Positions 26,668-36,548 are shown, counted from the stretch's first letter. The stretch is 52,695 nucleotides of DNA from Candidatus Heimdallarchaeota archaeon (GCA_019056785.1 DXJV01000091.1:1-52695), one strand, 5' to 3'. Numbers and translations are program-made. The notes: generated from the letters alone by a model not told the origin.

Positions 26668-27453
26668 TTAGTTTATAATAATAACTTCTTCAAATAGGGA
26701 AGGGTCATTAACGACGAAGTTTATCATTTCGAGATATTCATTTAAAGCCTCATAGGCAAATTCACGAGACTTAAATCGGGTGGAAATTTTCAGAACATTA
26801 ATCATATCTAACCCCTCAAGTCGAACAACTCCTTCTGCAAAGGAAATAATGAATAATACCCAATTTACATTATTTTCCCCAAAAACAGATGACCTCGGAA
26901 AAGGTTTCGCAAAAACTATTTTTGCTTTTCCTTTAAACTCATCGCCAATCTCGTTTAGAATACTCCGCGCTTCAATTATCCTGAGGTTCTTATAGCTATT
27001 CTTGGTAATTGCTGCTTCCAGCCTTTTTATCCAGTCATATCGCAATATGATCTTGCTCTCAGGATTATCCTCAAGATATTTCCAAATTGGGCAAAACTGG
27101 TGTCGTTCTTGACCGAATAATCGTTCTGGCAAGTAGGCGGTCCAGAGGTTCTCTCGAAGTTTCATCATATCAATTTTTACCGGCCCTTTCCTGAATGACT
27201 CTTTATTAACCTTATTTTGGAGTTCCTCTTGCCTTTGCTGTAATTTCTTCTCTGCTTTCTCTTTTGAATAAATAATCCCTTCAAGTATTACCATACCAAA
27301 TTCTTGAATAATAATTTTTGAGAGAGTAGTTACTGGAATTTGTGTAACAGTTTTTAGCCATTCTAAATTAACCTCGTCCCTATTGCCAATAAGCCTTTCA
27401 ATGGACTTGATCATTTCAGGTGTTATTGCTTCTTGAGAGGGGCTTGGACACAC
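26668..27453 (-). CDS. Hypothetical protein
   Basis: 261-aa ORF with GGTGA upstream of the GTG start; no family recognised. Confidence 0.65.
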   Translation of the reverse strand: MCPSPSQEAITPEMIKSIERLIGNRDEVNLEWLKTVTQIPVTTLSKIIIQEFGMVILEGIIYSKEKAEKKLQQRQEELQNKVNKESFRKGPVKIDMMKLRENLWTAYLPERLFGQERHQFCPIWKYLEDNPESKIILRYDWIKRLEAAITKNSYKNLRIIEARSILNEIGDEFKGKAKIVFAKPFPRSSVFGENNVNWVLFIISFAEGVVRLEGLDMINVLKISTRFKSREFAYEALNEYLEMINFVVNDPSLFEEVIIIN

Positions 27454-27536: not shown

Positions 27537-27896
27537 TTATTTTTCTATTTGCTCAGAAAAATACAACTCTTTCCCTTCTACTAACATTTCAGCCATTTTT
27601 CTTCTAGCTGAATTGATGAGTCGCCAAAGTGCTGTTTTTGACAGCGCCATTTTTCTGCCGGCTTCTTCTTGTGTCAAGCCTAAAAGGTCTACAAGACGTA
27701 AAGCCTCGTATTCTGCTATGGTAAGCCTAATTGGTTCTTCGGAGATTTTTGGTTTTGGCACCACACGCCTTATTTTTGGCAGCTCATAGATTACAATCTC
27801 TTTTAAGGGTCGCCCTCTTCTCTGCCCTTTAGGGCATTCGCGCTCTTCACAAAATCGTTTTCGTTTCTTTTCACATCGGAAATGATAATAGCGCAT
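27537..27896 (-). CDS. DUF134/UPF0251 putative DNA-binding protein
   Basis: GRP...LTIAEYEALRLVDLLGLTQEEAGRKMALS...LINSARRKMAEMLVEGK. Confidence 0.9.
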   Translation of the reverse strand: MRYYHFRCEKKRKRFCEERECPKGQRRGRPLKEIVIYELPKIRRVVPKPKISEEPIRLTIAEYEALRLVDLLGLTQEEAGRKMALSKTALWRLINSARRKMAEMLVEGKELYFSEQIEK

Positions 27897-28035
27897 TTTT
27901 CACCGGATCCACATTTTAGTTGCTAGTGCCCTTTGTTCACAAATAAATTTTTTGGGATATGTTCCAAAAATTTAAAAAGGAGTATGTTCTTCAACATTTT
28001 TGGGAAATAACCCAAAAATCTGTGGTGAAAAAAAT

Positions 28036-28404
28036 ATGACAATCATTGCATTTCCGACAATCGATGCGAATGGTGAGAAGAGTAAAATTTCCAACCATTT
28101 TGGACGAGCACCATATTATGTGCTTTATGAAAAAGAGACAAAGCAATTTTCTGTTATAAATAATAAAAGCGAACATTTCGGTGGTGGGTATAAAGCACCG
28201 TCTCTTTTAGAAGACAATCACGTAAATGTTCTAATTTGCCAAGGCCTTGGGCAACGTGCCCTTCAGCGCTTCAATGAATCTAATGTTGCTGTTTATTTAA
28301 CAACAAAAACACTAGTAGAAGAGGCTCTCCGGGACTTTAATGATGGGAAATTAACCCTTTGCACTGAATCCGAAGCCTGCGAAGGAAAAGGGAAGCATCA
28401 TTAA
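28036..28404 (+). CDS. NifB/NifX (FeMo-cofactor-binding-like) family protein
   Basis: IIAFPT...ISNHFGRAPYY...VLICQGLGQRA; ATG at 28036 with GGTGA upstream. Confidence 0.9.
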   Translation: MTIIAFPTIDANGEKSKISNHFGRAPYYVLYEKETKQFSVINNKSEHFGGGYKAPSLLEDNHVNVLICQGLGQRALQRFNESNVAVYLTTKTLVEEALRDFNDGKLTLCTESEACEGKGKHH

Positions 28405-28477: not shown

Positions 28478-30208
28478 ATGATAAAGTGTAAAGAAAGTAG
28501 AACGAGAAGCTTTTATGAGAGATTTTTATCAATGGGAAACCTTACAGAAATGAATAATAACCAAGTCATTCGTGTTTTTTCTTTCTACTGTGATATCTGT
28601 CATAAAAAAATAGAAGTCCCAATACTGAAAAAGGACAAAGAACGACAAGTTGGTGGGATTTTTCGCAAGATTGTCATCCATCAATGTGAAAAAGAACCTT
28701 TAGCATTTTTCCTCTATTTTGATGAACATTATGCACTCCGGCAAAAGATTACTCGTGAAGTAACTTTTGAAAAAATTGATGCTGTTAATGGTTTTTCCCA
28801 CGAAGAATTAGAGGATATTAAAGTAAAGTATGGCTTCAATTATTTTTACAAGATTTTTGGTGATGAATTTTCAAAGGTTATTTTTGCTATCCTCATTGGG
28901 CAACAAGTGATAATAGCAGGAGAGAGGAGTGTTGTTTCTTCTTTGATAAACACTCTCAAAATTTTCACCGAAATTCGTAATTGCAAGATAACTTACTGGT
29001 CAAAAGAGGTTGAGTTACTTTCTGATATTGTAGGAACACCTGGAATAAACAGACAAAAATTTCCAAATTCAATAATTGTGGACCTAAAAAATAAACAAAT
29101 CAAGAATGGAATTTCAAACAAATATTCGCTTAAATTCTTACAGAAAATTATTCGAGAATTGGAGATCAATTCTATTTCAAATACTATTCTTAAAGAACTC
29201 CATCGTTTGGACAGCTATGTTAAATCCTTTATTCGAGTAAAAAGTGTAGACGAGGTCGAACTTTTTCTGGAGTCGTTAGCTTTTGAAATTCAAGATGTTG
29301 CGCTCCTCGAAATTTTAGTGATTATTGGTACCCAATTAAACCCACTCATAGCACAATATTACCGTTACAATTATCAGAATTTGAAAGAAATCGATTTGAA
29401 TACTGTCCTCCCGTTTAAAATCTGGTGTTTACAGGAAAAAAAGAGGGCACCTCCAATGACTATCGTGCCGGATAGCTTACCAAATTTCAAAGAATTCTTA
29501 ATTATCAAACGGATCCAAACGCAAGCGAAATGCAATCAATTTTCTCTAAAATTGTTTGAATTCTTCACTCCCAAGAATCATTATATCTTCATTCCCCAAG
29601 GACAAAATACATTTGTATTCTCTTTTCCGCGATATAATGAAGATTTCACTCTCATTTCGAATGCCTTAAAATGTCATTTTGCATTTCAAAAAGAAGCTAA
29701 AAGCAAAAAACTCAATAATGAACATGTTAAAAACAGAATTCTCGAGTCATGGAATGAGATAACAAAAAAAACAACTATTCCGAAAAAATACCAACATTTG
29801 TTAGAAATAAGACAGGAACTACCCTTATTAATAGAACATTCAATTCTCGAAAGCTATTTCTTTGAAATTACCTATGATTTTGCGAATTTCCGTTCATTAA
29901 CGACGGCATTACTCGAAAGATTGGAAGAGACCTTCCAAGTCGAGCTTAAAATTATTCATACTAAGAGCTTGTACACTATTTCTTCCGCTCTTCCATCGCA
30001 ATGGCCAGATAATCCCAAGGTGCAACAAACAATTACTGTCAATTTCAATATCCATTTGTATAACAAAGAGTTGGAGTCCCCTAACAAGTCGGCTATTGTG
30101 CTTGACTTGTTTGTCGACCCTGAAAATATGACTTTAGGTTTAGAATGCCAAAAACTTTTTTCAGATCTTTGTCAAAAATTCTTGAATTGCTTTTCAAAGA
30201 TATTTTGA
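28478..30208 (+). CDS. Putative Cys/His metal-binding domain plus folliculin-like DENN-core protein
   Basis: N-terminal CDIC...HQC...DEHY. FSKVIFAILIGQQVIIAG resembles the cDENN helix-strand (recalled folliculin HVLMGNQVIW), followed by DIVG...IIVDL. Confidence 0.55.
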   Translation: MIKCKESRTRSFYERFLSMGNLTEMNNNQVIRVFSFYCDICHKKIEVPILKKDKERQVGGIFRKIVIHQCEKEPLAFFLYFDEHYALRQKITREVTFEKIDAVNGFSHEELEDIKVKYGFNYFYKIFGDEFSKVIFAILIGQQVIIAGERSVVSSLINTLKIFTEIRNCKITYWSKEVELLSDIVGTPGINRQKFPNSIIVDLKNKQIKNGISNKYSLKFLQKIIRELEINSISNTILKELHRLDSYVKSFIRVKSVDEVELFLESLAFEIQDVALLEILVIIGTQLNPLIAQYYRYNYQNLKEIDLNTVLPFKIWCLQEKKRAPPMTIVPDSLPNFKEFLIIKRIQTQAKCNQFSLKLFEFFTPKNHYIFIPQGQNTFVFSFPRYNEDFTLISNALKCHFAFQKEAKSKKLNNEHVKNRILESWNEITKKTTIPKKYQHLLEIRQELPLLIEHSILESYFFEITYDFANFRSLTTALLERLEETFQVELKIIHTKSLYTISSALPSQWPDNPKVQQTITVNFNIHLYNKELESPNKSAIVLDLFVDPENMTLGLECQKLFSDLCQKFLNCFSKIF

Positions 30209-30231
30209 GAGCTTTTAGTAAAATTCCTCTC

Positions 30232-30903
30232 TTAGCTGTTTTCAACCGGTGTGTTTCTTTTCTTCCTCTCAGTATAGCTCTTTTTTTCAGTTTGAAGGAT
30301 ATTCTGGCACAAAATCTCAAATGTTTCTCTTACATTAATATTGGATTTTGATGACGTTTCCAAAAAGTCAACGATGTTAAGCTGCAAGTCTTCCTTCGAA
30401 TTGATGAAATCTTTGACAATTGCAGGGTCAACTTCTCTTTCATCTTCTAAGTCATTTTTTGTGGAGACAAGGATTATTGGAATGTCTTTCTCACAATTCG
30501 CTTTAATCAGCGGGATCCAGGTGTGATAGAGCGAAAAGAAAGTATCAATTACTGTACTATCATATGCCAGAATAATCCCTTTACATCCTTTCAGAAAACG
30601 ATCCATAATTTGTTGAAACTGTGGTTGCCCGGCAAGATCCCAAACAGAGAGCACCACCGACCCATTGTCTGTCTCTAGAGTGTGAGTGAAAAATTGCACC
30701 CCAATAGTTATTTTATAATTATCAAAGTAATCATCTAAAATATGCCCCATTGCTCGTTGACACAAAGTGGTTTTTCCGACTCCTCCAACACCAGCAATTG
30801 CAACCTTTATGATCTTGTTTTTTTCCTTTTCCAAAGGCAAATCTGTTTCAAGGTTCTTACTTGTTAAGACTCTTTTGTGTCGTTTTGATTCTATCTGTTG
30901 CAT
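30232..30903 (-). CDS. Rab-like small GTPase
   Basis: GVGGVGKTT, YKITIGVQF, WDLAGQ, FLKGC, LAYDST, TKND, TSSK. No C-terminal prenylation Cys motif. Confidence 0.9.
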   Translation of the reverse strand: MQQIESKRHKRVLTSKNLETDLPLEKEKNKIIKVAIAGVGGVGKTTLCQRAMGHILDDYFDNYKITIGVQFFTHTLETDNGSVVLSVWDLAGQPQFQQIMDRFLKGCKGIILAYDSTVIDTFFSLYHTWIPLIKANCEKDIPIILVSTKNDLEDEREVDPAIVKDFINSKEDLQLNIVDFLETSSKSNINVRETFEILCQNILQTEKKSYTERKKRNTPVENS

Positions 30904-30976
30904 GTCTTTTTATTAGCAAGAACTTATTTTTAACTGCTTTGCTGATAAAAAATCCCTCGAGACAACAAATAGTCCC

Positions 30977-31417
30977 TTAGTTTAGATTGCGTAATGCCTG
31001 CATAATTTGCTTCGCTTTAACAATTGCCACAGGCAATTTCGTTGTTTTCCGTTCACATTGGACAAAAAGGAGGAGCTTCTGTTGTGTTAGAACAAGAAGG
31101 GTTACTTCTTCCATTTGTATAAGTAAATGTTCCATCGAATTTTCTGTCATTTTTTTCAAGCGAGTTTTAACGCCCCCTACAAGTTCAATAATCTCTTTAA
31201 ACTCGAGGGTTTTCTCCCTTTTCCCCCATCGTTGATAATCATAGATCACCCTTTTTGGTTCAAGACAAATACAAAGACGAATAATGCCACGCATTGATAT
31301 TAATTCAGAAACAATTTTCTCGATATTTTGAGGCGCTTTTTCAGACAAAAAAATTACCGGTTCAATATAAATATCTGCATTCAATTTTTCCGCAACCTTA
31401 CTCTTCTTTTTAATCAT
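30977..31417 (-). CDS. Roadblock/LC7-like protein
   Basis: Roadblock-type alpha/beta pattern (GIIRLCIC...MEHLLIQMEEVTLLV...LLLFVQC...LPVAIVKAKQIMQAL), directly upstream of the Rab-like gene. Confidence 0.65.
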   Translation of the reverse strand: MIKKKSKVAEKLNADIYIEPVIFLSEKAPQNIEKIVSELISMRGIIRLCICLEPKRVIYDYQRWGKREKTLEFKEIIELVGGVKTRLKKMTENSMEHLLIQMEEVTLLVLTQQKLLLFVQCERKTTKLPVAIVKAKQIMQALRNLN

Positions 31418-31991: not shown

Positions 31992-32924
31992 ATGTCTCGT
32001 GAAAGAAAATATTTTAAACCACTTCTGTTTGTTAATCTTTTACTAATTGGAATTGCCTTTCAAGATTGTTCCTTAATTCAAGCCACTCAAATAACTTTTG
32101 ATGATCATTTCACGTTTAATGCAATTTTTACTGTTAATGATTTTGGTAACTTTTCACGTTTTAAAGATGATTCCCGGATTTACAGTTATAACGGTGGGTC
32201 TTCAATTGAATTTGAATATCTAAGAGGAGTAGTTTCCGAGAATGTTTCTGAAATTTACATATTATCCTTAGGTGATTTAGGAAATGTTTCTGATTTTTCG
32301 TTAAGCGTTGTCGTGAATTACACCTTTGTTGATCTTTACGACATTGCCAGTTCCTATGCAATTGTTGGCAGCTATTATAATAATGATCTGGAATGGGTTG
32401 GTTATCCTCAAGATGCTCAGAGCCCTGTTTGTATATTGGGCTATCAAGACTTCTGGCGAAACTCTTCAGGCCGGATTTTTACAACCGCATATCAATATGA
32501 TATAGAAGAAACAAATACTACGGAACTAAATGCTACTGCTCTTTCAGGCGAACTTTTGTTAGAAGTTTCAAGAAATACTACCGGCTTGTTTACCAAAATC
32601 TCGTTTAATAATAATTATACTGAGATTGTTACTAAACAAGTAGTACATGGTATTTGGAAACCTGTTAATTATCTCCTGCTCTCCTTCATCTCTTCGGGTA
32701 ATACCACTGAAAATGCCAAAGCAATCTGGAAAGATTTTACTGCCGCATTTACGATCGAAAACGTTGGTCCAGTTATCCCGCCTAATACCTCTACGGGACC
32801 GAAATTCACCATCCCCAGCTTTAGCATTCCGGGATACACGTTAGTTATTGCCTTTTCAAGTACCATATTTCTTGCAGTGATTGTTTTCCTTAGAAAACGA
32901 ACTGAAAAAGCAGTAGTTTCTTAA
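31992..32924 (+). CDS. Secreted surface protein with IPGY-TM-basic C-terminal anchor
   Basis: Signal peptide, many NxS/T sequons, Pro/Thr linker, IPGYTLVIAFSSTIFLAVIVFL-RKR. Confidence 0.75.
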   Translation: MSRERKYFKPLLFVNLLLIGIAFQDCSLIQATQITFDDHFTFNAIFTVNDFGNFSRFKDDSRIYSYNGGSSIEFEYLRGVVSENVSEIYILSLGDLGNVSDFSLSVVVNYTFVDLYDIASSYAIVGSYYNNDLEWVGYPQDAQSPVCILGYQDFWRNSSGRIFTTAYQYDIEETNTTELNATALSGELLLEVSRNTTGLFTKISFNNNYTEIVTKQVVHGIWKPVNYLLLSFISSGNTTENAKAIWKDFTAAFTIENVGPVIPPNTSTGPKFTIPSFSIPGYTLVIAFSSTIFLAVIVFLRKRTEKAVVS

Positions 32925-34361: not shown

Positions 34362-36548
34362 GTGACCCAAGGAGGGTGCCCATTGAGCTTTGACGCAACA
34401 GACATTATACCCATCGAATATCAATCGTTATTTAGGATTATTTCACCTATAGAAAAATCAGGGATTTTAAAAATACTCCGGGAGAAATACTCTTCATTAA
34501 AAGATAAATATGAAGCATTTTTTCAAGCATTAAAAGACTATCTGATTAATTATCAGTCAGAAGATATTTCTTCTCTTTCCTTTATTATGTTCGGGCAAAT
34601 ATCACTTGATCTGTTAAAAAATGAAAAAATTACTCAAATGCTTGAACTTTATCCGAACTCATCAGAGCTGAAATTCTATAATATTCAATTACAGGTTGAT
34701 AAAGGCATTTTTGAAGGGGTAAATGAAGTTATCAAAGCGAGCCGGTTAAAACCGACTGAGCGAAACATGATTTTCAATCGTTTAGTTGCTGCAGATAAAC
34801 TTGCCAGAATAATTTTAGATCTGCAAAGTTTTCTCCTGGAAATAATGTTTTATTCAATGAAACAAGATTATGAAAAAGCAATGAGTATTTTCACAGAAGC
34901 AGAAGATATTTGGCATCGAATTTTAAATTGGATTAAAGATAAAGAAATAACCTTTGTAACAGAACTCGTTATCAGAGCAATTTTACAGAAATGCCAAATT
35001 CTACTTTCTGCGAAAGGGCTAGATGTTGCTATCAAATACTATGAAACAGATGAGATTCAAAGTGTGCTAAAAAAAGCAAAGAGCTTTGTTACTAAAGCAA
35101 ATATCCTTCATGTCGCGGCTATGCTTTATTATAGCGCCGGCCAACCAAAGAAAGGGTTGAAATATCTCGAGAAAGCAATTAAAAATCTCAAGAAAGTTCA
35201 TGGAAGAAACTCATGGAAATCAACTTTTTATCACAACTTGGCATATATGTATACACTACTTGACAAAAACAAGTCAATTGAAGCATATGAAAAATGCATT
35301 GAATTATTGGAAGGGACGGATGATTTACAAACACTAGCTTCAGTTCTTAGTAATCTTATTGGACTTCATACGCAAGCAAACCGGAAGGGAGAAGCACGAA
35401 AACGCCTTAAACAGTTAGTTGAAATTTTAGATCAAAGTGATGAGCTTGTTACTTCCTTCAGAGCCTATGCTGTTGCTTCTAATGCCATGAGTTTGGATGA
35501 CTATCAACTAGCCAAAAAATATTTGAAAATTCTGGAAGAAAAAGTAGAACAAGCTCCAACTTTAATGAATAAAGCTATTAAAGCAAGTGCCTATTTTGCT
35601 TACTATCTTGATGTTGAAATTAATTCAGAAAAGGCCTATAAATATGGTGAAGAAGCTCTGTTCTACATTACAAAACAAAAAGATTACTTAAATGCTCTTG
35701 GAATTGTTTTTAATCTGGTAACAACTGATTTGCAATTTTATAAAATAACGGAAAAAGATCGCTACTTGAATAATGCTAAAAGAAGATTAAAAGAGCTTTT
35801 AACGTTGGTTGGCGCGTTAAATCAACCAAAATGGAAAGCAGATAAAAATATTGTTCAAGCAAGTTTCGAAATTCTTTCACAAAACTACGACCAAGCAAAA
35901 TCATTTATCTCAATTATTCCGAAAACAACTGACAAAAAGGTAAATGCAAAGAAAAAAATGCTCAAACAATTACTCGAATTTTCTAAACGAAAAGAAAGCA
36001 AACCGGATGAGGAAACCACTCCTGAGCCTTTTCCAGACCAACCATTACTAAATGAACTTGCAACAAATAAAGATGCTACTAAAATAATGGTGATGCACAT
36101 ACTTGAACAAACCCTTGAGGAATTAGTCCAATTACCACAACAAGTTGATCCAATAAAAGCAGACATAAAACTTATTCTTCTTATTAATGACGCAGGGCTT
36201 ACTATTTATACAAAAGTCTTCGATATTCAAAAAATGAACCAACAACTGATTTCTAACTTTATTTCTGCTATTGATTCATTCGGGAAACAGCTGTTTGGTA
36301 CTACAGAACCCTACTTCTCTATTACTCGAGGTAACAATATTATCCTCTATCGAAATATTAACGATAACTTAAATCTCGCCCTTATCGTTTCTCAAGAAAA
36401 CTTTGATGCCATTATGAAGCTAAACACTTTAGCACTCGATATTGCTAGCTATCTTAAAGAAACTCCCACTGATCTTAATCATGAACTTACATCTACTGAT
36501 CACTTCCATACATGGTTAGAAACCAAAGTCGATGAAATGCTAAAATAA
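34362..36548 (+). CDS. TPR-solenoid protein with C-terminal longin domain
   Basis: TPR-like YHNLAYMY..., LSNLIGLH...; C-terminal IKLILLINDAGLTIY...QLISNFISAIDSFGKQLFG is longin-like. Confidence 0.8.
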   Translation: MTQGGCPLSFDATDIIPIEYQSLFRIISPIEKSGILKILREKYSSLKDKYEAFFQALKDYLINYQSEDISSLSFIMFGQISLDLLKNEKITQMLELYPNSSELKFYNIQLQVDKGIFEGVNEVIKASRLKPTERNMIFNRLVAADKLARIILDLQSFLLEIMFYSMKQDYEKAMSIFTEAEDIWHRILNWIKDKEITFVTELVIRAILQKCQILLSAKGLDVAIKYYETDEIQSVLKKAKSFVTKANILHVAAMLYYSAGQPKKGLKYLEKAIKNLKKVHGRNSWKSTFYHNLAYMYTLLDKNKSIEAYEKCIELLEGTDDLQTLASVLSNLIGLHTQANRKGEARKRLKQLVEILDQSDELVTSFRAYAVASNAMSLDDYQLAKKYLKILEEKVEQAPTLMNKAIKASAYFAYYLDVEINSEKAYKYGEEALFYITKQKDYLNALGIVFNLVTTDLQFYKITEKDRYLNNAKRRLKELLTLVGALNQPKWKADKNIVQASFEILSQNYDQAKSFISIIPKTTDKKVNAKKKMLKQLLEFSKRKESKPDEETTPEPFPDQPLLNELATNKDATKIMVMHILEQTLEELVQLPQQVDPIKADIKLILLINDAGLTIYTKVFDIQKMNQQLISNFISAIDSFGKQLFGTTEPYFSITRGNNIILYRNINDNLNLALIVSQENFDAIMKLNTLALDIASYLKETPTDLNHELTSTDHFHTWLETKVDEMLK

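Follow-up and report, generated by a model that had tools for sequence, protein, structure and literature searches.

A stretch of 52,695 nucleotides from Candidatus Heimdallarchaeota archaeon (GCA_019056785.1 DXJV01000091.1:1-52695), hereafter the window, carries three adjacent genes for a folliculin/SMCR8-like DENN protein of 576 amino acids (aa), a small GTPase that is Rab-like, and a roadblock-fold protein (Table 1). The DENN and GTPase genes are convergent, with their stop codons separated by 23 bp; 73 bp upstream of the GTPase gene, and sharing its strand, is the roadblock gene. An earlier note, drawn from the sequence alone, had proposed these genes as a complete switch made up of a guanine nucleotide exchange factor (GEF), a GTPase, and a GTPase-activating protein (GAP), and the open reading frame (ORF) boundaries that it gave agree exactly with ours. 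Orthologues of the DENN protein are 555 to 576 aa long, so its true start is perhaps Met19 or Met25. The window is AT-rich (GC content of 32 to 39%), and the best-named homologues come from metagenome-assembled genomes (MAGs) labeled "Candidatus Heimdallarchaeota" and "Asgard group." The sequencing runs listed comprise sediment and hydrothermal-vent DNA only, with no RNA runs among them, and a scan for promoters and terminators, which used bacterial models, was uninformative for an archaeon.

Table 1. Genes and protein domains of the GTPase locus and its conserved neighbors, in window coordinates
Feature	Position	Strand	Evidence
261-aa protein, fold not recognized, conserved neighbor	26668..27453	-	tblastn synteny
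576-aa folliculin/SMCR8-like DENN protein, four domains	28478..30208	+	ORF, AF2 model, orthologues
N-domain, residues 30-94, five beta-strands, candidate Cys3His zinc site	28565..28759	+	AF2, invariant columns
cDENN + dDENN domain, residues 115-299	28820..29374	+	
Third domain, residues 303-447, alpha/beta, tentatively longin-like	29384..29818	+	
C-terminal domain, residues 455-576, b-a-b-b-b-b-a, resembles KA1, TBP-like, and Bet v 1-like folds	29840..30205	+	
223-aa Rab-like small GTPase	30232..30903	-	Pfam Ras, PDB matches, orthologue alignment
146-aa roadblock-fold protein	30977..31417	-	AF2 model, Foldseek, orthologue alignment
728-aa TPR protein, conserved neighbor	34362..36548	+	Pfam TPR_12 9.2e-12, tblastn synteny

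The folliculin-like cDENN motif that the earlier note had read in the 576-aa protein is borne out by structure prediction. An AlphaFold2 (AF2) model built on 143 sequences reached a predicted local distance difference test score (pLDDT) of 91.7 and a predicted template modeling score (pTM) of 0.82. The protein has the cDENN alpha/beta core followed by a helical dDENN that marks the DENN superfamily. A Foldseek search with the model returned structural matches at probability 1.00, and the fold found over residues ~115 to 300 is a DENN fold, nearest to folliculin and SMCR8. An ESM Atlas search retrieved Heimdall clusters carrying Pfam Folliculin, together with eukaryotic SMCR8 and DENND10. The sequence signals are weak yet concordant: Folliculin_C matches residues 129 to 163 with an E value of 0.0039, at 17.2 bits against a cut-off of 27 in the local Pfam, which misses the threshold of the curated DENN model; a precomputed SMCR8_C match (PF27109) is listed, without a score, for P0001 and P0002 (58%-identical orthologue); and the family profile finds the SMCR8 DENN core as its best PDB match (E value, 0.0077). 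A PDB search with the single 576-aa sequence gave zero matches. In a set of 125 more distant relatives, Folliculin_C (found in five proteins, at 5.9e-6 in the best case) is among the commonest Pfam families, along with C9orf72-like, Folliculin, and the longin families. On the AF2 model, the DENN fold is established, and it lies closest to the folliculin/SMCR8 branch.

The GTPase matches Pfam Ras at 1.5e-33, and its best 60 PDB sequence matches are all Rab/Ypt proteins or the Thorarchaeota Rab, with Rab35 first (7e-24). Motifs G1 to G5 are intact (P-loop GVGGVGKT, T66, switch II DLAGQ with Gln93, G4 TKND, and G5 ETSSK) and invariant in an alignment of 11 orthologues, which are 63 to 79% identical, as expected of a member of the Ras superfamily. 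The protein had been described earlier as a Rab-like GTPase with all five RabF segments; the first half of that description stands, and the second was overstated. Compared with Rab35, RabF1 (IGVQF versus IGVDF) and RabF5 (LAYDST versus VVYDVT) agree well, whereas RabF2 (VLSVW versus KLQIW), RabF3 (QFQQIM versus RFRTIT), and RabF4 (FLKGC versus YYRGT) are partial, with one or two residues kept in each. The C-terminal tail, in which lysine and arginine abound, ends in ...KKRNTPVENS and has no prenylatable Cys, and Cys is likewise absent from the tail of every aligned orthologue; a conserved LPLEK motif precedes the G domain. By these motifs the label Rab-like suits the protein best, and it falls outside the definition of true Rabs. 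With its P-loop intact, Gln93 present, and a Gly where Ras has G12, it is compatible with GAP-stimulated hydrolysis, and the GTPase module is presumably associated with membrane. We also considered an MglA identity and rejected it, given the normal DxxGQ motif and best matches that are all Rabs. The nearest nonorthologous GTPases (~35% identity), from Promethearchaeota MAGs, are tandem GTPase pairs with neither a roadblock nor a DENN gene adjacent (L037:6347-7657, L038:4818-6104, and L039:1184-2781).

Neither Pfam at an E value of ≤1, Robl_LC7 included, nor NCBIfam gave any match to the 146-aa protein, and it is the structural model that upholds the earlier assignment of a roadblock gene upstream of the GTPase. 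The AF2 model, built from six orthologues, has a mean pLDDT of 72, rising to ~80 in the core from residue 31, and its secondary structure runs a-b-b-a-b-b-b-a. The best 50 Foldseek matches shown are all roadblock proteins or domains (probability, 1.00; E value, ~1e-4; template modeling score by target, 0.6 to 0.7). They include subunits of LAMTOR/Ragulator, one of which (5y3a_G) is the top match, as well as MglB and the Roadblocks of Thorarchaeota and Prometheoarchaeum (MK-D1). According to this model, the 146-aa protein folds as a roadblock. Its orthologues align with an invariant Y-x-Y-x-RWG motif and a lysine-rich disordered N terminus.

Related loci were also retrieved with the GTPase alignment as the query. 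All loci whose flanks are long enough (L001 to L006, L008 to L011, and L028 to L035) show the order of roadblock, GTPase, and convergent DENN gene, so the linkage that the earlier interpretation presupposed is conserved in all orthologous loci examined, within one Heimdall family. The tight spacing of 23 bp and 73 bp around the GTPase gene is likewise kept across the family. Over these loci the DENN protein falls to 28% identity and the GTPase stays at 63 to 79%, and the outer flanks vary, with citrate lyase genes in L002, cbiMQ in L003, and DUF134 and NifX-like genes in the window. Full-length DENN orthologues occur in 12 of the 12 genomes of this family, the window's genome included; whole-genome searches of other families of the class found DENN-core paralogues only. 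Of 151 genomes sampled from the whole phylum, 2 yielded a GTPase orthologue (E value of ≤1e-40), and these 2 belong to the same Heimdall family. A profile search of 1.8 billion representatives returned ~12 full-length DENN orthologues and >100 proteins that share the DENN core only, many of them with an N-terminal longin-type domain of their own and eleven with FD..GP. In another family, unrelated genes separate the nearest DENN homologue from a Ras-family GTPase ~5 kb away.

Some individual loci merit separate mention. In one relative (L032:7674-9389; G007:C8:47640-49325), an in-frame TAA divides the DENN gene into two ORFs, which makes it either a pseudogene or an assembly error. A contig labeled "Candidatus Bathyarchaeia archaeon" (L028; DATKZI010000061.1) carries the whole module in its Heimdall-type form, with a GTPase 75% identical to that of the window, and is probably a mislabeled or misbinned MAG. 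The window's own genome encodes short DENN paralogues of 244 to 286 aa (G000:C65:34785-35612, or L024:5785-6612, and G000:C11:128250-128918), neither of which has a GTPase within ~6 kb; the copy on C65 (L024) sits among metabolic genes.

We read the locus as a small-GTPase switch module of a Heimdall-type archaeon in which the neighbors of the GTPase are probably its own regulators. The earlier interpretation is supported in part, by the DENN fold and by the conserved linkage. Binding between the proteins and the catalytic roles that follow are what we infer from the folds and motifs described above and from the way the genes stay linked. The roadblock protein, probably as a dimer, would bind the GTP form of the GTPase and act as an MglB-like GAP or as a platform; the DENN protein would be the second regulator, driving nucleotide exchange. 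This division of labor is a tentative preference, argued by analogy: the roadblock-then-GTPase order mirrors mglB-mglA, which favors a GAP or platform role for the roadblock protein and would leave the DENN protein as the exchange factor by complement. The earlier note made this same assignment, as did Liu et al. (bioRxiv 10.1101/2020.10.19.343400). A prediction of the complex between the DENN protein and the GTPase scored 0.00, with the verdict "no answer," and is not evidence either way.

The locus resembles MglA-MglB in having a roadblock gene directly upstream of, and on one strand with, the gene for a small GTPase, and MglB is among the best structural matches of the roadblock model (1j3w, 3t1r, and 6h5b). 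The sequence of the roadblock protein, however, is only 12 to 18% identical to MglB. The GTPase, being Rab-like, has the normal DxxGQ in switch II, and no arginine was seen along switch I; in MglA, by contrast, the catalytic arginine comes from the GTPase itself. The Ragulator (LAMTOR2-5)/Rag system provides the top structural match of the roadblock protein, but the locus has a single roadblock gene rather than a pentamer, and its GTPase lacks the C-terminal roadblock domain that Rags have. For DENND1A/B-Rab35, the canonical DENN Rab GEF, the structural match of the 576-aa protein is weaker than that to FLCN or SMCR8, the archaeal protein lacks a demonstrable uDENN longin, and the GTPase of the locus lacks the prenylation Cys and has partial RabF motifs.

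Several observations weigh against our interpretation. All of the loci come from one family, and the synteny could in part be due to shared ancestry alone. Because it is encoded on the other strand, the DENN gene is not cotranscribed with the roadblock and GTPase genes. The short paralogues, which consist of the N-domain and DENN only, lie elsewhere in the same genome with no GTPase nearby, and DENN proteins of this type therefore do not always need an adjacent GTPase. Finally, the canonical uDENN-cDENN-dDENN architecture is not borne out, because the N-domain is not demonstrably a longin: an hhalign comparison of this domain with Asgard GP-motif longins gave a probability of 0.16%.

The N-domain itself deserves closer description. 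In the AF2 model it consists of five beta-strands followed by a long helix, without an alpha1 helix; the CxxC motif lies within the beta1-beta2 hairpin and HxC at the end of beta3, a predicted layout that fits a zinc knuckle pair. C38, C41, G59, G60, H68, C70, D82, and R88 are invariant over 21 domain sequences, paralogues and stand-alone 70-aa proteins included, and C38, C41, H68, and C70 are also invariant in all aligned relatives that cover the domain. The Cys/His N-domain of the earlier note is thus a conserved feature, with invariant CxxC, HxC, and Arg residues; the redox input suggested alongside it finds no support. Judged by its conserved residues, the Cys3His cluster most likely holds a structural zinc ion, and a role as a redox sensor is less likely. 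The invariance of three Cys and one His makes a metal site plausible, as does the fact that folliculin, like Lst7, has a putative N-terminal Cys/His zinc module (PMC3438538, PMC4703059). We note a resemblance to that module and do not claim homology, because the Cys/His spacing differs (CxxC-x26-HxC here versus HxCx2H...Cx2C in FLCN). A profile of the N-domain found nothing meaningful among PDB sequences and Pfam, the best match being zf_C2H2_13 (E value, 0.0034) in three paralogues. The pattern CxxC...GG...HxC...D...R also occurs in stand-alone proteins of 70 to 166 aa (P0138, P0146, P0147, P0119, and P0130), and similar Asgard clusters of 75 to 95 aa, from Promethearchaeota and Thorarchaeota, have no Pfam family; the stand-alone Cys/His domain looks like an undescribed small zinc module.

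The invariant R88 is a candidate catalytic or binding arginine. FLCN Arg164 and SMCR8 Arg147 are the arginines that these proteins insert into the GTPase active site, and Arg88 may be a positional equivalent of FLCN Arg164. The GEF and GAP roles could be assigned the other way around, because the nearest DENN-domain relatives of the 576-aa protein, FLCN and SMCR8, are subunits of arginine-finger GAP complexes (PMC12290439); the same 2025 survey argues that Asgard FLCN/SMCR8-type longins may be GAPs. The 576-aa protein would then be a folliculin-like single-chain GAP acting through Arg88 on a GTPase that retains the Gly and Gln of a GAP-dependent enzyme, and the roadblock protein would be a Ragulator/LAMTOR-like anchor or an exchange platform. 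We regard this reversal as rather unlikely. Homology between the N-domain and GP-motif longins went undetected, and the only stretch that hhalign aligned, which was not significant, paired Arg88 with the RGG arginine. More distant relatives carry FD..GP and RGG motifs; the GP motif is absent from the N-domain, where an invariant Pro48, with Val or Ile before it, stands in the beta1-beta2 loop. FLCN and SMCR8, moreover, act as heterodimers with FNIP and C9orf72, and a partner of this type is not identified here. Unlike either protein, the 576-aa protein has no demonstrable N-terminal longin and has extra longin-like and KA1-like domains after the DENN core, and the neighboring GTPase is Rab-like rather than Rag or Arf. 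It seems improbable that Asgard archaea have in the 576-aa protein a counterpart of the FLCN-FNIP GAP made of a single chain. Such a protein would combine an arginine finger on the zinc N-domain with DENN and longin-like domains; its substrate would be a Rab-like GTPase that a Ragulator-like roadblock holds, and the TPR protein would offer its longin-type domain in trans.

Two further genes, encoding the 261-aa and the 728-aa TPR proteins, both stay within ~6 kb of the module across related loci by tblastn. The 261-aa protein is 55 to 74% identical in these loci, and its gene is usually divergent from the DENN gene; it has no significant Pfam match (best E value, 0.028), an atlas search gave no usable match, and it may be a fourth component of the module. 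The TPR protein is 61 to 75% identical across related loci. A phmmer search with its residues 586 to 728 (positions 36120 to 36548) showed that the last ~110 aa are similar to the longin-type domain at the N terminus of Asgard longin-plus-DENN proteins (P0030, P0087, and P0042), at an E value of 4.8e-8, relative to a 147-sequence set. By this similarity, a uDENN-type domain, which the 576-aa protein seems to be without, could be provided in trans by the TPR C terminus.

Other neighbors are less constant. Between the genes for the 261-aa and DENN proteins (positions 27537 to 28404) lie genes for a DUF134 regulator and a NifX/NifB-type (Nitro_FeMo-Co) protein, and because they are found only in the window and L001, they look like a recent insertion into the conserved neighborhood. 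Also loosely conserved beside the module is a 310-aa protein (positions 31992 to 32924, plus strand) that has a hydrophobic segment at each terminus and numerous N-x-S/T sites, at 28 to 44% identity in L001, L003, L028, and L029. RING-finger proteins (zf-RING_2/Prok-RING_1) occur near the module in two relatives (L002:9785-11535 and L003:13259-13692).

The two conserved neighborhood genes, one of them with a longin-type C terminus, would also suit an arrangement in which the linked proteins share one pathway without forming enzyme-regulator pairs. The DENN and roadblock proteins would then be effectors or scaffolds, for example membrane-tethering platforms together with the TPR-longin and 261-aa proteins, and the true GEF and GAP would be encoded elsewhere. 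The DENN domain of FLCN and SMCR8 serves chiefly for dimerization, which is in keeping with such a scaffold. Tran et al. (PMC10933270), who solved structures of Asgard Rab-like and roadblock proteins, report that Asgard GTPases generally lie outside the operons of their regulators. Every characterized roadblock or DENN protein, however, is a direct small-GTPase partner, and the 23-bp and 73-bp spacing around the GTPase gene has been kept family-wide; we therefore think the scaffold arrangement quite improbable.

The three families have been found together before. Liu et al. (bioRxiv 10.1101/2020.10.19.343400; Nature 2021) predict that Asgard archaea have an operon in which a DENN protein is encoded with a Rab-like GTPase and a LAMTOR1-like roadblock; they consider it a strong candidate GEF module analogous to FLCN and conserved in most Asgard archaea. 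The likeness to our locus is close: the same three families are adjacent in one neighborhood, with the same proposed link to folliculin, Rag, and Ragulator. The two differ in that the orthologous group described here is found in one Heimdall family only, among the genomes searched, and its conservation is demonstrated within that family, and in that the DENN gene here is always convergent and on a separate transcript. That the linkage is a functionless phylogenetic leftover among close relatives is very improbable: full-length DENN and GTPase orthologues were indeed found in only the one family, and the nearest DENN homologue in other families is not adjacent to a GTPase, but the outer flanks have been repeatedly reshuffled around an intact core, the arrangement is unchanged where the DENN protein is at 28% identity, and the same three-family combination is reported across Asgard lineages by Liu et al.

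The idea behind the earlier note is consequently not new, and the locus is a rediscovery of a published, predicted type. New here are the structural confirmation in this lineage, the four-domain architecture with its uncharacterized zinc-type N-domain, the restriction to one Heimdall family among the genomes searched, and the wider conserved neighborhood; no description of a zinc-type N-domain or of the two extra C-terminal domains was found in the accessible text of Liu et al.

Membrane trafficking in eukaryotes, like nutrient signaling through folliculin, Rag, and Ragulator, depends centrally on DENN, roadblock, and Rab-like proteins, and their Asgard versions are the best window onto the origin of these switches. 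Pairing an Asgard GTPase with its regulators by gene order is usually impossible (PMC10933270). This compact three-gene locus names one GTPase and two candidate regulators and thereby offers a practical entry point for biochemistry. Because the operon type is already published, the value of the locus lies in its testability: with it one could decide between a GEF and a GAP role for the folliculin-type DENN proteins of archaea. Were the 576-aa protein a single-chain GAP after all, the lysosomal nutrient switch of folliculin, Rag, and Ragulator would have a prokaryotic forerunner in this module, and the stand-alone zinc modules of 70 to 95 aa would be a new class of minimal GTPase regulators.

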